A stretch of DNA of 64,000 nucleotides from Candidatus Saccharibacteria bacterium UBA6040 (GTDB lineage Bacteria > Patescibacteriota > Saccharimonadia > Saccharimonadales > Saccharimonadaceae), in NCBI GenBank assembly GCA_002429245.1, contig DIZA01000002.1, forward strand, positions 44,350 to 108,349. Direction: 5' to 3'. A program made the translations under genes and the position numbers. The notes under the pieces are model-generated. The model made no database searches, had not been told where the DNA came from, and worked only from the letters and a program-made list of their open reading frames with translations. Positions 38,756 to 43,680 of the stretch are shown here, one piece after another. The number at the start of each line of letters is the position of its first letter. The first letter of the stretch is position 1.

Positions 38756-39925
38756 GTGCCGGAACGAGAGTGGCAGCTATCATTAGACGCCGAGAATGAT
38801 CAAAAAATGCAACTTCTTTCAAGGCTTACTTCGCAAGTTGTTCGAGCTAACTCGGAGACGATCCCTGCGCAACTCTTTGAATCCCACTATGCTTACGAGG
38901 ACGAAGACATTCTCGATATGGTCGACGAATATCTCAGCGGTGAATTTTACGCGTCTCTGACGGCAGAACAGAAAGAGTATGTATCTCGAGCAATCAGTTT
39001 GCCCGCCGACAGAACATGGCGATATGGCAACAAACTATACACCGATGGACTTTGGGATGCAGAGGGAGCTGCTTTCGTGCACCCCTTACAGTCGCAAGAT
39101 ACACTGATCTTAACCGGGCTCGCAGGTGCGGATTTGTTTGGCTTGAGTAAGCGACTTGATCGACTGGCAGCCGGTATTGAACCCGATGTTTTAAAACGTG
39201 CAGTATTACTCGGTGGGGTTGCGCTTGCAAGTCCACATATGCGATATAGCCAACCCGGTGTCGCATACAGAGGAGAGGCTCAGGATGAAATGGTACCCGA
39301 AACGTATATTGGCGGAACACATCATGGTGACTTTTGGACGTCTCGTGGCGTACGATTTGAACACGATGCCTTATCGCCAATAGGTGAGCCATCGACTTTT
39401 GCGCCCGCAGTAGAAAAGGTCCACATACCTGGCTATCACGGTACTGAAACAGGCGTTATGCGGGCATTGTTGGCATATCGGGCAGGATACCAAGGCGCTG
39501 ATCGCTTGGAGGTATTTCAAAAGATTGCAGGATACTTACAGGAGCAACCAACAAAGGGTGCGGGAAACTTTGCTGATTTTGGCGATGACGATGGCTTTCG
39601 TGACGCATCCGTTTTGGGTGATGTACTTGAGGGCGAGATAAAAGAAAATGATGTGCTTCTTAATACTTTAGTAACACCAGACAATCACGACCTACGGCTG
39701 CAGCTTGCAGTGAGGAAAGAGGGTGTTGAATTTGCGTTCATGTCAGACATGGGTGAGACAATTCGCTCATTTGTCTTGCCTTCGAATGAAATTGAGATGT
39801 ACGCCGCGCAGCTAATAGGTTCCGGATACGGAAGAACATCGCAATGGGCATTGGTGAATATCGTGAAAGTACTCCGCGACGGTAAACCTGCTCGCCGTAG
39901 CGATGGATACGATATCGACGAATAG
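38756..39925 (+). CDS. Hypothetical protein (389 aa)
   Basis: Long ORF, GTG start with GGAG; no recognised family. Confidence 0.75.
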   Translation: MPEREWQLSLDAENDQKMQLLSRLTSQVVRANSETIPAQLFESHYAYEDEDILDMVDEYLSGEFYASLTAEQKEYVSRAISLPADRTWRYGNKLYTDGLWDAEGAAFVHPLQSQDTLILTGLAGADLFGLSKRLDRLAAGIEPDVLKRAVLLGGVALASPHMRYSQPGVAYRGEAQDEMVPETYIGGTHHGDFWTSRGVRFEHDALSPIGEPSTFAPAVEKVHIPGYHGTETGVMRALLAYRAGYQGADRLEVFQKIAGYLQEQPTKGAGNFADFGDDDGFRDASVLGDVLEGEIKENDVLLNTLVTPDNHDLRLQLAVRKEGVEFAFMSDMGETIRSFVLPSNEIEMYAAQLIGSGYGRTSQWALVNIVKVLRDGKPARRSDGYDIDE

Positions 39926-39999: not shown

Positions 40000-41109
40000 A
40001 TGGAAGATACGTCCGAACCCACTCCCGAAATTGTAGATACTTCAGAAGTTCCTGATATCGATGCGCCCGTTGAAGCATTTGCCGCGGTGAATGTTCCAAC
40101 CGAAGTTGCTGAACATGTTGAAAAAATTGAGACTGCTAGTGAAGACCAAGATTATACTGACATTTTCCAATGGGCGAACTCGACCGATGCTGTAAAGAAC
40201 GAACTTGACGTTGAATTTTTTCTTTTCAATCGAAATTACACGCCGTACACGACGACACTAGGAAATGACCTCGATACGCAGATTAAGCCTGTTTTTTTGT
40301 TTGACCTTGTTAACCAAGTGATCTTGGGTGCCGGGACAGGGCTTTCGGTTCGTGATTATGAACTGACTGAGAAAGAAGAGAACACGTTGCTACGGACTGA
40401 TCTTGAAAAAGTTGGTCGTGCAAATACGCTGATTCACCTGATTGAACACGAACGTAAAGACATCGTGGAATTCTCTGAAGAAGAGCATGAATTCAAACGC
40501 ATCAAAGGAATTATTGCGCGCTTCTCGAGCAAGGATAAGAAAAAAGTATTCTACGTCGTCAAACAGGTGAGTAGTGGCCAAGCTTTGAAGGGCGTCAATG
40601 CATGGGAATTCCGCGACGGTAAGTTTGAACTATTCAAGGCTGACCTTGGTTGGAAAGTGCCAACTGATAACCAGGTGTTGATTACCGGTAAGGACATCTT
40701 TATTTTTGCGCAGAGTAAATTTGAGCGTTTATTCAACTACGAATTTAAAAAGCAATTACTGGCTGATCAAAAAGTTGCCGAAATCGAAAAACTCTACAAA
40801 CTGAGTTTCCCTGATGGTATGGATCTGCAATCTGCGGTTATGGAACGCAAGAAAGTCGTCAACAAACTACAGAAACTTGAAGTTGGTGTCGTGTCGCAAG
40901 AACAGGCGATTGAATACGCTGATGTCATGCAACTCGAACTAATGACCGACGATGAAGGCGCGATTATCATCATGGATGGCAACGATCTTGATATGTTTGT
41001 AAACTTGATTAACGAAGACTATATCACGAATGAGATCACTGGTCGTCGCTATGAAATTAAGGGCAAGCGACTGCTTGATGATCCCGAAGGCGAGCCACCA
41101 CGAGGCTAG
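40000..41109 (+). CDS. DUF4868 / KwaB-like domain protein
   Basis: Recalled similarity of DNQVLI...IFIFAQSKFERLFNY segment to DUF4868; not computed. Confidence 0.5.
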   Translation: MEDTSEPTPEIVDTSEVPDIDAPVEAFAAVNVPTEVAEHVEKIETASEDQDYTDIFQWANSTDAVKNELDVEFFLFNRNYTPYTTTLGNDLDTQIKPVFLFDLVNQVILGAGTGLSVRDYELTEKEENTLLRTDLEKVGRANTLIHLIEHERKDIVEFSEEEHEFKRIKGIIARFSSKDKKKVFYVVKQVSSGQALKGVNAWEFRDGKFELFKADLGWKVPTDNQVLITGKDIFIFAQSKFERLFNYEFKKQLLADQKVAEIEKLYKLSFPDGMDLQSAVMERKKVVNKLQKLEVGVVSQEQAIEYADVMQLELMTDDEGAIIIMDGNDLDMFVNLINEDYITNEITGRRYEIKGKRLLDDPEGEPPRG

Positions 41110-41137
41110 TGCTGGGTAGTGGTTACGCTTTAATCAC

Positions 41138-41166
41138 TTGCAAATATATAGCGTTCGGGTTTTAAT
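41138..41166 (+). promoter_or_regulatory. Sigma70-like promoter of module B
   Basis: TTGCAA-17 bp-TTTAAT. Confidence 0.55.
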
Positions 41167-41223
41167 AGATGTAGGAAGCGACACCCCGTCGCAGCACATC
41201 GAAACGAAGGACGGTGAGATACC

Positions 41224-41640
41224 GTGTTGAAAAAAACCAAGTTTTTTGATGTTGAATGCGCCTATGGCCGCGCATACGACCTCAAACAACTTCGTCGAAT
41301 CCTCGATAAAGTGATTGGCACGCGCGTGCGAGAATTGCGAGTGGTCCGCATGGGCCGTCGTACTGTGCGCGCTGTTGTCGAGCTACACGACTACACAGAG
41401 GTGAACTTTAAGGCAATTCAGCAAAATATGCTGAATGACCAAGGAGTGATCCTGATCGAGGTCGCACTCGATGGAAGCAGCCAATCCATGCAAGTGGATC
41501 CAGAAACGGTTGCTCCGTCGACCATTCCGGTGAAAATTATTCCACCATCGGCGGTACCGGTAACAATCGAGGTGATAAAGCAGCCTGCTGCCAAACCACG
41601 TCGTTCACCACGTCCCGCTCGTCACCCAGCTGCGGCATAA
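41224..41640 (+). CDS. Hypothetical protein (138 aa), module B
   Basis: Own promoter, UTR hairpin and 3' hairpin; Pro-rich tail. Confidence 0.7.
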   Translation: MLKKTKFFDVECAYGRAYDLKQLRRILDKVIGTRVRELRVVRMGRRTVRAVVELHDYTEVNFKAIQQNMLNDQGVILIEVALDGSSQSMQVDPETVAPSTIPVKIIPPSAVPVTIEVIKQPAAKPRRSPRPARHPAAA

Positions 41641-41669
41641 ATGCCTTCCGCGCCCGTGGCAATGAAGTC

Positions 41670-41701
41670 GAGAGCCTGCTCCTTCATTGGTGCGGGCTCT
41701 C
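41670..41701 (+). terminator. Module B 3' hairpin
   Basis: GAGAGCCTGC...GCGGGCTCTC then TTCGCTTT. Confidence 0.75.
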
Positions 41702-41731
41702 TTCGCTTTAAGTCAGACATTTTGGTTGTGC

Positions 41732-41760
41732 TTGCTAGATGAGAAAGTAAACGCTATAAA
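41732..41760 (+). promoter_or_regulatory. Sigma70-like promoter of module C
   Basis: TTGCTA-17 bp-TATAAA. Confidence 0.55.
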
Positions 41761-41811
41761 ATAGATATACCCAAACGTGTTTCTAGAGATCCTGAGAGAG
41801 TGGAGTGAAAT

Positions 41812-42045
41812 ATGGCGAAAACAGTGACCGTACTGATGAATATCGAAAAGGCATCTGTGTGGGTGCTGATGACGGATCTCGTGGAGAAGCATGAGGCAGA
41901 ATTTAAGAGGAATGTACTGGTAAGATTGCAGTACGTGAGGTTCCTGAAATTCGGCCATACGCATCTTCGGGTGATCTGCGAGCAGTATCCCTATGAAGTC
42001 GTCGAGAAAGTCGTCGAAGAGGTCCTTCTCGAGCTGGAGGTATAA
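41812..42045 (+). CDS. Hypothetical protein (77 aa), module C
   Basis: GGAG RBS, own promoter and 3' hairpin. Confidence 0.7.
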   Translation: MAKTVTVLMNIEKASVWVLMTDLVEKHEAEFKRNVLVRLQYVRFLKFGHTHLRVICEQYPYEVVEKVVEEVLLELEV

Positions 42046-42046
42046 T

Positions 42047-42102
42047 GCCCGCCCGATAAGTAGAGCAGTCGCCTTGTGTGACACCGCTCCTTGTGGGCGG
42101 GC
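42047..42102 (+). terminator. Module C 3' hairpin
   Basis: GCCCGCCC/GGGCGGGC base, inner GAGC/GCTC, then TCTTCTTATTTTT. Confidence 0.75.
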
Positions 42103-42153
42103 TCTTCTTATTTTTAATAATTCTAATCGGTTTATTCGGGTATAATAGAAGTA

Positions 42154-43680
42154 ATGAATCAGGGGTTAGCACTCGAGATAATGCTCTCGGGACAAAGCGT
42201 TCTTTTAACTGGTCCTGCGGGGGCCGGTAAGACTTTTGTGTTGAATCAATTTATCAAGCTTGCCAAGTATGAAGGTAAGCATGTATCGGTCACGGCAACG
42301 ACCGGCCTGGCCGCAACGCACTTGGGCGGAACGACCATTCATAGCTGGGCAGGGATTGGTGTTCATGACTCAATCGGCCACGGTTTCGTCGATCACATCG
42401 CCAAGGGCCGTCGTGAAATTATTGAAAAGACCGATGTACTGATCATCGATGAGATCAGTATGCTTCATGATTTCCGCCTTGATATGGTGGATGAGGTGTG
42501 TCGCATCGTCCGCAAAAAAGATGAACCATTTGGTGGTGTCCAGATTATTATGTCGGGTGATTTCTTTCAGTTGCCTCCAATCAACAGAGGTGACTCGCGG
42601 GCCGGCGGTTTCGTGGTGAATTCGGAAGTCTGGCGTGAACTTGATCCAGTTATTTGTTATCTGCAAGAACAGCACCGACAAGACGACGAGCAACTACTTG
42701 ATATCTTGAACGCAATGCGCGCAGGTGATGTTCGTCGTCATCACGCCGAACTACTCTTGGCGCGATCTGAAGTTTTCCCTGATGACCTTGAGCAATTAAC
42801 GGAGCTACACACAGTAAACGTTGATGTCGATAAGATTAACGAGGCAAAACTTGAAACACTCGAAGGCGACGAAGTGGTGTATAGCCAAATGACAACCGGT
42901 TCTGAAAGTTATGTTGAAACCTTGCAACGATCTGTTCTGGCGCCTTCTGCATTGAAAGTAAAAAAGGGTGCGTTAGTCATGGCGGTGAAAAATAGTCCTG
43001 AGCGCAAGTACGTGAACGGGAGTATCGGAACAGTGATCGACTTCGAACCATACACCGATTATCCAATCGTTGAATTCAAGAATGGCAAAGAAGTATCGAT
43101 GGTTCCTGACACATGGGAACTGCGTGATGGTGATAAAAAACGGGCCAGTATTAGCCAGATCCCACTGCGTCTCGCATGGGCAATTACGATTCACAAGTCG
43201 CAAGGAATGACGCTCGACGCTGCTCGAATTGACCTTCGCAAAGCGTTTGTCGAAGGCATGGGATACGTTGCTTTAAGCCGAGTAAAAAATTTGAACAATC
43301 TTTATTTAACAGGTATTAACCAAATGGCACTGAAGGTCAGCGAGGATGCGCAGACGATTGACGGAATCCTTCGCGACAAGGCCGCATCAGACGCGAAACG
43401 CTTTGCTCCACTGCAAAAGAAGGCCGAAGAGCGTGCCAAGAAACCAGTTGTTGAAAAAACAACGTCTGACAAAAAAAGTGGCTGGAATGAAAAGATCGCC
43501 AAGATGCGTGAGACGTATCCAAACGCTTATAAACCTTGGGAAGACAGTCAAGATGCTGAATTGAAGCAAGAGTTTCAGCAGGGTCTGACGATTGAAGAGC
43601 TCAGTAAATTGCTGGGACGACACGAGGGCTCGATCAAAATGCGTCTGCAAAAGCATTTCGGTGAAGACGTTGTTCAATAG
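42154..43680 (+). CDS. PIF1-family 5'-3' DNA helicase with C-terminal HTH-like domain
   Basis: GPAGAGKT, IIDEISM, GDFFQLPP, AWAITIHKSQGMT, YVALSR. Confidence 0.93.
   Translation: MNQGLALEIMLSGQSVLLTGPAGAGKTFVLNQFIKLAKYEGKHVSVTATTGLAATHLGGTTIHSWAGIGVHDSIGHGFVDHIAKGRREIIEKTDVLIIDEISMLHDFRLDMVDEVCRIVRKKDEPFGGVQIIMSGDFFQLPPINRGDSRAGGFVVNSEVWRELDPVICYLQEQHRQDDEQLLDILNAMRAGDVRRHHAELLLARSEVFPDDLEQLTELHTVNVDVDKINEAKLETLEGDEVVYSQMTTGSESYVETLQRSVLAPSALKVKKGALVMAVKNSPERKYVNGSIGTVIDFEPYTDYPIVEFKNGKEVSMVPDTWELRDGDKKRASISQIPLRLAWAITIHKSQGMTLDAARIDLRKAFVEGMGYVALSRVKNLNNLYLTGINQMALKVSEDAQTIDGILRDKAASDAKRFAPLQKKAEERAKKPVVEKTTSDKKSGWNEKIAKMRETYPNAYKPWEDSQDAELKQEFQQGLTIEELSKLLGRHEGSIKMRLQKHFGEDVVQ

Follow-up and report, generated by a model that had tools for sequence, protein, structure and literature searches.

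The window analyzed here is a 64,000-nucleotide stretch of Candidatus Saccharibacteria bacterium UBA6040 (contig DIZA01000002.1, positions 44,350 to 108,349 of the forward strand), which is part of a genome of 866 kb in seven contigs with 46-47% GC. Within it, a KwaB-like gene and a gene for a PIF1-like helicase enclose a gap of 1,044 bp that holds two small open reading frames (ORFs) on the plus strand, orfA and orfB. An original prediction, made from the sequence alone, had described the two as a pair of modules, each consisting of an ORFan with its own promoter and 3' hairpin, and had assigned them to a module family dispersed over several loci that also includes the modules F, G, and H of the same window. 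Both ORFs, both promoters, the 5' hairpin of orfA, and both 3' hairpins were found on reading of the sequence at the positions listed in Table 1.

Table 1. Features of the gap between the KwaB-like and PIF1 genes and of its flanks (positions in the window)
Feature	Position	Strand	Description
KwaB-like (DUF4868) gene, left flank	40000-41109	+	Pfam, PADLOC, synteny with PIF1 in congeners
orfA promoter (predicted)	41138-41166	+	TTGCAA (41138-41143), 17 nt, TTTAAT (41161-41166), then AATAGATGTA
Stem-loop in orfA 5' untranslated region, GCGAC-ACCCC-GTCGC	41178-41192	+	Fold; about 5 nt past the predicted transcript start
orfA	41224-41640	+	138 aa, GTG start, 52% GC
orfA terminator, T_A (predicted)	41652-41709	+	16-bp helix (41652-41667/41682-41697), conserved loop GAGAGCCTGCTC, tail TCTCTTCGCTTT
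orfB promoter (predicted)	41732-41760	+	TTGCTA (41732-41737), 17 nt, TATAAA (41755-41760)
orfB	41812-42045	+	77 aa, 48% GC
orfB terminator, T_B (predicted)	42047-42116	+	GCCCGCCC...GGGCGGGC clamp, three-tier hairpin, tail TCTTCTTATTTTT
PIF1-like helicase, right flank	element 42141-43680, gene 42154-43680	+	Pfam PIF1, E 1.7e-35

Small Genes of the Gap

Both orfA and orfB are real genes because they have metagenomic homologues, show ratios of non-synonymous to synonymous substitution (dN/dS) of about 0.2, and differ from their homologues in excess at third codon positions. For orfA, eight homologues with identities of 54-99% were found; dN/dS is 0.20-0.25 and the differences at the three codon positions amount to 19/11/42. 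The single homologue of orfB is 71% identical and lies on contig L038, likewise just before the PIF1 gene, with a dN/dS of 0.22 and differences of 16/9/32. An antisense ORF of 123 amino acids (aa; 41713-42084) was rejected as a true gene, because L038 does not preserve it and the codon positions at which changes fall point to orfB. For orfA, a profile search through 1.84 billion representatives recovered only 11 clusters at 50% identity, with lengths of 115-156 aa, and no orfA relatives were found in the GTDB species representatives. The label ORFan is nearly right, in that orfA forms a tiny family of these 11 clusters and orfB has one known homologue.

The N-terminus of the orfA family carries a conserved KFFDVECA...LRR motif. 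In the AlphaFold2 model of orfA, which has a mean confidence (pLDDT) of 71, residues 1-88 form an N-terminal domain with a beta-alpha-beta-beta-alpha-beta pattern, followed by a disordered segment rich in Pro, Thr, and Val and a basic tail ending in AAA. Foldseek comparison of this model with the PDB gave generic ferredoxin-like folds only (best E 0.04), and the N-terminal domain is predicted to be ferredoxin-like. The model of orfB (pLDDT 44) is unreliable and too poor for a structure search. Neither protein has a Pfam, PHROG, or PADLOC match, and no toxin-antitoxin, defense, anti-defense, or phage family was recognized. Nearly all orfA homologues (P0001-P0016) end in -AAA, -SAA, -TAA (Thr-Ala-Ala), or -VAA behind a basic tail rich in Arg and Pro. 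These ends recall C-terminal Ala-Ala degradation tags, and a link to proteolysis may be conjectured.

Promoters, 5' Stem-Loop, and Terminators

The predicted promoter of orfA is kept in at least eight relatives, among them the contigs L033, L034, and L038 and the genomes G044, G013, G016, and G007, and that of orfB retains its -35 box in L038, with a less conserved -10 box. Hexamers and 17-bp spacing are present in both cases, as originally proposed for sigma-70 promoters. However, neither promoter passes a consensus scan, each lacking A2 or T6 of the -10 hexamer, and the scan gave 3 promoter-like matches in the region versus 4.4 +/- 2.3 expected. The helicase gene has a TATAAT of its own at 42141-42146, 7 nt upstream of the ATG. 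A 10-mer AATAGAT(G/A)TA, or AATAGAAGTA, was noticed after the -10 boxes of all three promoters in the gap (41164-41173, 41760-41769, and 42144-42153), and TATAATAGA is the usual -10 context ahead of PIF1 in congeners. AATAGAT(G/A)TA is a genus-wide extended -10/discriminator motif.

The stem-loop in the 5' untranslated region (5' UTR) of orfA is also seen in L033 and L034, where a G-U pair or a loop of 4 nt distinguishes it. A hairpin of other sequence (GGACG..CGTCC or AGGTGA..TCACCT) is found at the same position in G013, G016, G007, G044, and L038. Because relatives form a hairpin there from other sequences, the conserved feature is a stem-loop and not the sequence GCGAC-N5-GTCGC. This motif occurs twice in the genome, each time in the 5' UTR of a module (orfA and H). 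The likeness to module H that had been pointed out is an exact match, but the identity is probably a coincidence, given that relatives differ.

Like intrinsic terminators, T_A and T_B are stable, GC-rich stem-loops in sense orientation right after a stop codon. T_A folds with -29.8 kcal/mol (z -4.1) and T_B with -33.7 kcal/mol (z -5.25), values reached by 0/200 shuffles in each case. In an 11-genome alignment, the 16-bp helix of T_A is 94.7% paired (slid controls about 45%) and eight of its pairs have changed on both sides, a number that 0/500 shuffles attain. T_B is kept in L038 with wobble-compatible changes. Both hairpins are real and beyond chance. Since many of the changes in T_A are G-U wobbles, valid on the plus strand only, T_A functions as RNA. 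Its almost invariant loop (GAGCCYGCTCC) can pair alternatively with GCGGGCTCTC in the 3' arm; this alternative helix is conserved, with no covariation for or against it. An H-type pseudoknot was considered and dismissed: the two helices interleave but the linkers measure 0-3 nt, and covariation is confined to the long helix, so that they were treated as alternative structures. The 3' arms of both hairpins are closed by GCGGGCTC (41692-41699 and 42097-42104), as is that of module F, in agreement with the original prediction. The tail of T_B is a good T-tract and that of T_A a moderate one, whose version in relatives is CTCTTCATTTTT. A terminator scan called the inner hairpin of T_B only, and there was no Rfam match within 40900-42300.

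T_A is 87-94% identical in G013, G016, G007, and G005 and is the sole non-flank DNA of the gap that BLAST matched in congeners. The idea that it is a dispersed repeat was abandoned, as it is single-copy, and bound to this locus, across 40 congeners.

Variable Contents of the Slot in Relatives

The contents of the slot were surveyed in 20 genomes of the same genus and, in addition, on the contigs L033, L034, and L038 and in the genome G044. The KwaB-like and PIF1 genes are neighbors in all 20 congeners and also flank the slot in the four additional sequences. In 9/20 congeners the slot is empty, with a spacing of 13-56 bp, and in the other 11 it is filled with 600-1900 bp of differing cargo. 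At least six unrelated types of cargo occur. Among them are unrelated small ORFs, an ORF of 300 aa, genes for coiled-coil proteins, a prephenate dehydratase of 274-278 aa that is read from the opposite strand in G024 (L020) and G006 (L021), and, in G017, a split prephenate dehydrogenase-like gene. Aromatic amino-acid genes are unexpected cargo in genomes so reduced.

L033 and L034 carry an orfA homologue and lack orfB, while in L038 an unrelated ORF of 138 aa stands ahead of the orfB homologue. G044, the closest species representative with flanks 88-92% identical, contains neither orfA nor orfB but a 148-aa ORF. Since each gene occurs without the other (L033 and L034 versus L038), orfA and orfB are independent of each other and no obligate pair, contrary to what had been proposed; orfA or the second ORF family described below in slot 1, and orfB present or absent, occur in every one of the four possible combinations. 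A toxin-antitoxin pair was likewise rejected, as the genes can occur singly, have separate promoters and terminators, and match no toxin-antitoxin family. Among the few sequences compared, the slot content is incongruent with the relatedness of the flanks.

Probable Replacement Inside a Conserved Frame

When the window is compared with G044 and L038, homology extends through the end of the KwaB-like gene and the orfA promoter as far as 41174/5, close to where the transcript is predicted to start, and returns at the terminator (41652-41672). Between these breakpoints lie the unrelated ORFs of 148 aa in G044 and 138 aa in L038, here referred to as family 2. Profile comparison (hhalign) gave a probability of 0.3% that orfA and family 2 are related. 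The intergenic DNA beside the coding part still aligns at 70-78%, and therefore the coding part has been replaced and not eroded. ORFs in G013, G016, G007, and G005 are likewise enclosed by the orfA promoter and terminator, and diverged versions of T_A follow other ORFs in G004 and G022. Synonymous divergence (pS) is 0.45-0.58 for orfA versus 0.72-0.80, a saturated level, for both flanking genes.

It is conceivable, in principle, that orfA and the family 2 ORFs are one hyper-divergent orthologous gene, inherited vertically and subject to extremely fast protein evolution. They have in common the promoter, the position of the 5' hairpin, the sequence leading into the start codon (GATAC(C)-GTG/ATG), and the terminator; moreover, judging from the sequences and the orfA model, all have about 140-150 aa and a similar beta-alpha-beta-beta-alpha-beta pattern along with a segment rich in Ser, Thr, and Pro. 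However, family 2 proteins have this low-complexity segment at the N-terminus and orfA has it at the C-terminus, and the coding parts lack any DNA or profile similarity while the neutral-looking intergenic DNA alongside remains alignable at the level given above. The sharp breakpoints and the incongruence of slot content with flank relatedness also speak against a single gene, which makes this explanation very improbable.

Possible Insertion of the orfB Unit

Contigs without orfB align to the window until 41704 and then again from 42140. G044 has one terminator, which aligns both with the 3' half of T_A, at 41672-41712, and with the 3' half of T_B and the sequence after it, at 42084-42124. These two segments make up a direct repeat, imperfect and about 40 nt long, on either side of the orfB unit. 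Because both align to the one terminator of G044, the sequences suggest that orfB was inserted at or within the orfA terminator. This reading is weakened by the similarity between T_A and T_B, which is not above that between unlinked terminators of the same style. An origin of orfB by tandem duplication of the orfA unit was discarded, as the similarity of the two units is limited to the consensus promoter boxes and the 3' half of the terminator.

Terminators of the Same Style Elsewhere in the Genome

Hairpins of the type CCCGC-N8-60-GCGGG occur at about 17 loci in the genome, and the intergenic, sense-oriented ones mostly belong to modules. GCGGGCTC has 12 genomic copies, six of which are terminator arms (of orfA, orfB, and F, and at C5:315.4 kb, C6:107.0 kb, and C7:163.6 kb), all located in variable regions. 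Thus, the topA-sigma gap measures 46-2400 bp in congeners, and F, G, and H are absent from G013. Within the genus, the distance between rpoC and rpsL varies from 160 bp to 5.5 kb, and this gap holds a unit with a GC-rich mini-ORF of 40 aa. An island of 3 kb (C5:313960-317000) separates two tRNA genes whose distance in G013 is 48 bp, and a YitT-like gene of patchy distribution, which adjoins a tRNA gene, has the same terminator style. Core genes such as tuf and rpoC have short terminators of A-tract, stem, and T-tract. About five variable loci of the genome have accessory units that are marked by long CCCGC...GCGGG(CTCT) terminators. In the genome-wide motif search that had been suggested as a check, the long hairpins follow accessory genes in variable regions and are not equally frequent after core genes, and orfA and orfB themselves are no core genes in fixed synteny.

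The rpoC-rpsL mini-unit (C6:106990-107245) consists of a TGCTATAAT promoter, the 40-aa ORF (MGEDKPEADVFDAADEAMLAAMRVAEATKEQKDAIRIKGD), and a AAAGAGCCCG...CGGCGGGCTCTTT terminator. G044 and G016 also have this unit, and G013 retains a match to the terminator only. The island between the tRNA genes contains GC-rich ORFs (151 aa, 58% GC; 108 aa, 55% GC) and encodes a protein of 147 aa in which two helix-turn-helix motifs occur. The terminator of its 151-aa unit, GGCGGGCTCTTCCCATTTTT, is 90% identical over 21 nt to the orfB terminator.

The proteins of orfA, orfB, F, G, and H show no similarity to each other by tblastn, blastp, or hhalign, and paralogy was rejected on these grounds. The tail TTCGCTTT, thought to be shared with module G, is a chance match and was dropped as a common signal, since about 80 copies exist in the genome, mostly within genes. 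Of the dispersed module family, non-core, self-contained units and a terminator style found at several variable loci, including F, G, and H, have stood; a mobile family of related elements has not, given unrelated proteins, a locus-bound single-copy T_A, and no recombinase nearby. The whole genome encodes one tyrosine recombinase (PF00589), on contig C3 and near neither array, and no Y1 (IS200/IS605) transposase.

The shared terminator style raises the question of a capture system, in which the CCCGC...GCGGGCTCT hairpin would serve as a site of recombination, similar to attC or to a sequence recognized by a hairpin-specific enzyme. Tandem arrays, such as orfA-orfB here and H-G-F 20 kb away, would then arise from cassettes, circular or single-stranded, that insert at hairpins already in place. 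The tandem arrangement and the direct repeat around orfB, both copies of which align to the G044 terminator, are what such a system would leave behind. Furthermore, GCGGGCTCT is common to six terminators, all behind accessory genes in variable regions, and pairwise terminator similarity exceeds that of shuffled sequences (0/300 for, e.g., A-B, B-C5, and C7-C5). However, the A-B similarity is not above that of unlinked terminators, the hairpins of G and H are unlike the GCGGGCTCT class, and no hairpin exists at empty sites. Other inserts in the slot, a 261-aa gene in G013 and a 192-aa gene in G005, have neither hairpin nor repeat. Together with the distant location of the only recombinase, the lack of a Y1 transposase, the confinement of T_A to one locus in 40 congeners, and the promoters that the units possess, this renders a capture system highly improbable.

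Integron cassettes are usually promoterless. The units of the gap resemble them in being tandem single ORFs with unrelated neighbors and an imperfect hairpin after each. They differ in that each has a -35/-10 pair, that of orfA being conserved in relatives, and in that no integrase, no attI, and no RYYYAAC/GTTRRRY cores at the boundaries are present. Moreover, the hairpin arms here are CCCGC/GCGGG(CTCT) with T-rich, terminator-like tails, and the orfA hairpin is locus-bound.

Neighboring Genes and a Possible Role in Defense

The genes around the slot are rnhA, the KwaB-like gene, PIF1, and GH1. The KwaB-like gene scores slightly below the Pfam cut-off for KwaB (E 2.2e-5, 25 bits; cut-off 26.3) and matches the PADLOC model of KwaB with an E of 1.1e-9; its PHROG matches are weak only. 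Several PADLOC helicase models match PIF1. In Kiwa, KwaB is accompanied by the membrane protein KwaA, whereas here the KwaB match is weak and PADLOC detected no KwaA partner. Upstream of the KwaB-like gene, an ORF of 389 aa (38756-39925) separates it from rnhA; searches of Pfam, PHROG, and PADLOC gave no match for this ORF. G044 lacks the ORF, with 66 bp from rnhA to the KwaB-like gene, and its place is taken by ORFs of 278 aa in L033 and 182 aa in L034. Its site is a second variable slot, immediately upstream of the KwaB-like gene. The KwaB-like and PIF1 genes, adjacent in all congeners surveyed and nearly contiguous in the nine with an empty slot, could be a functional unit other than canonical Kiwa.

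Against this background, orfA and/or orfB might be accessories of a KwaB-like/PIF1 defense module, for example a regulator, an antitoxin-like inhibitor, or a specificity factor, with their turnover driven by an arms race with phages. Such a role would account for the position of the cargo, always exactly between the two genes, and would fit the matches of both neighbors to PADLOC models. It would also agree with the non-synonymous evolution of orfA, which is two to six times faster than that of the flanking genes, and possibly with the tag-like -AA ends of its homologues, if these do relate to proteolysis. On the other hand, nearly half of the congeners (9/20) have the KwaB-like and PIF1 genes with nothing in between, the cargo can be metabolic (prephenate dehydratase in G024 and G006, the prephenate dehydrogenase-like gene in G017), and similar units reside between housekeeping genes (rpoC-rpsL and topA-sigma). 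Neither orfA nor orfB matches a defense, anti-defense, or phage family, KwaA was not detected, and with its own promoter and terminator each unit is probably insulated and not co-transcribed with its neighbors. A defense accessory is therefore an improbable explanation, and orfA and orfB are not obligate partners of the KwaB-like/PIF1 genes.

Interpretation as a Replacement-Type Hotspot

Phage morons are independent units of promoter, gene, and terminator inserted between conserved phage genes. At the sequence level, the units of the gap are alike in being single genes with their own promoter and terminator, placed between genes that are adjacent in relatives, and in varying in presence and composition. 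They differ in that they lie on a bacterial chromosome, away from any phage genes, and in that orfA and orfB match no PHROG; their GC contents (52% and 48%) are barely off that of the genome (47%). The concept of chromosomal hotspots of horizontal gene transfer has reportedly been put forward by Oliveira et al. in 2017. Replacement flexible genomic islands between core genes, which are swapped by homologous recombination, are likewise a known concept (Lopez-Perez et al., 2014; PMC4033161). The slot shares with such islands a fixed position between conserved genes, non-homologous gene content that varies with strain or species, the lack of mobile-element genes, and, among the few sequences compared, a content that appears incongruent with the clonal frame, with homologous recombination put forward as the route of exchange. 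However, the slot has one or two tiny genes (0.4-1 kb) and the islands are multi-gene clusters for surface structures; furthermore, the recombining arms of slot 1 appear to be the promoter and terminator of the unit itself and not the flanking genes.

Taken together, we consider it about 70% probable that the gap is a replacement-type hotspot, or flexible islet, with two independent, moron-like single-gene units that are exchanged by recombination. At the sequence level, each unit consists of a sigma-70-like promoter, a Shine-Dalgarno site, a small ORF under purifying selection, and a long GC-clamped hairpin with a T-rich tail, to which orfA adds the 5' stem-loop. This layout should insulate the units from the KwaB-like gene upstream and from PIF1 downstream. 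The units would be gained, lost, and swapped between lineages through DNA uptake and recombination via the conserved flanks. Exchange between lineages by this route is plausible because natural competence, along with homologous recombination, is established in Saccharibacteria (PMC10633639). In slot 1, recombination would proceed via the conserved promoter and terminator, so that the 5' UTR and the coding part are exchanged within a constant frame, and orfB would be a later addition, inserted at or within the orfA terminator. The products of orfA and orfB are fast-evolving accessory proteins whose functions, by analogy with other replacement islands, are most likely niche- or conflict-related.

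Several points weigh against this interpretation. Promoter and terminator activity are inferred from sequence, and the runs found to hold this DNA are of soil metagenome DNA only, with none of RNA. In each -10 box, one of the strongly conserved positions departs from the consensus, and the tail of T_A is only moderately T-rich. Synonymous divergence dips weakly toward the slot (0.53 in the first 60 codons of PIF1, 0.68-0.71 at the end of the KwaB-like gene), and this gradient was rejected as proof of a recombination tract for being too weak. The first entry of non-homologous coding parts into one frame is left unexplained, as is the GGCGGGCTCTT terminator arm common to unlinked accessory units. 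In addition, differential loss from an ancestral tandem array would give an identical pattern; it would proceed via the repeated -10 box AATAGAT(G/A)TA, a possible short-homology site for the loss of units, or via the similar terminators.

An extension of the hotspot interpretation, which is rather unlikely, holds that accessory genes of these competent, ultra-small bacteria travel as minimal promoter-to-terminator units whose conserved ends are portable homology arms or insertion points, without a dedicated recombinase. These ends may be the -10/discriminator box and the long GC-clamped terminator ending in GGCGGGCTCTT. If true, coding parts could be swapped or stacked at many intergenic sites, in effect a cassette system that needs no machinery, and the sharp breakpoints, the 40-nt repeat around orfB, the shared terminator style, and AATAGAT(G/A)TA at three promoters would all be explained.

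Significance for Saccharibacteria

The locus is an ordinary accessory-gene hotspot, notable only for a coding part that is swapped within a frame of promoter and terminator, and it reveals no new molecular machine. It does add a new small protein family, that of orfA with its KFFDVECA motif. Together with the topA-sigma, rpoC-rpsL, and tRNA-tRNA loci, it provides a simple marker of accessory units in the genus, namely long GC-clamped terminators as opposed to the short A/T-tract terminators of core genes. The genomes of Saccharibacteria are tiny and highly syntenic, and the sites and modes of their gene uptake are poorly described. The gap between the KwaB-like and PIF1 genes represents variation at the finest scale, with single genes swapped within a conserved regulatory frame, and the site lends itself to comparison over dozens of species.

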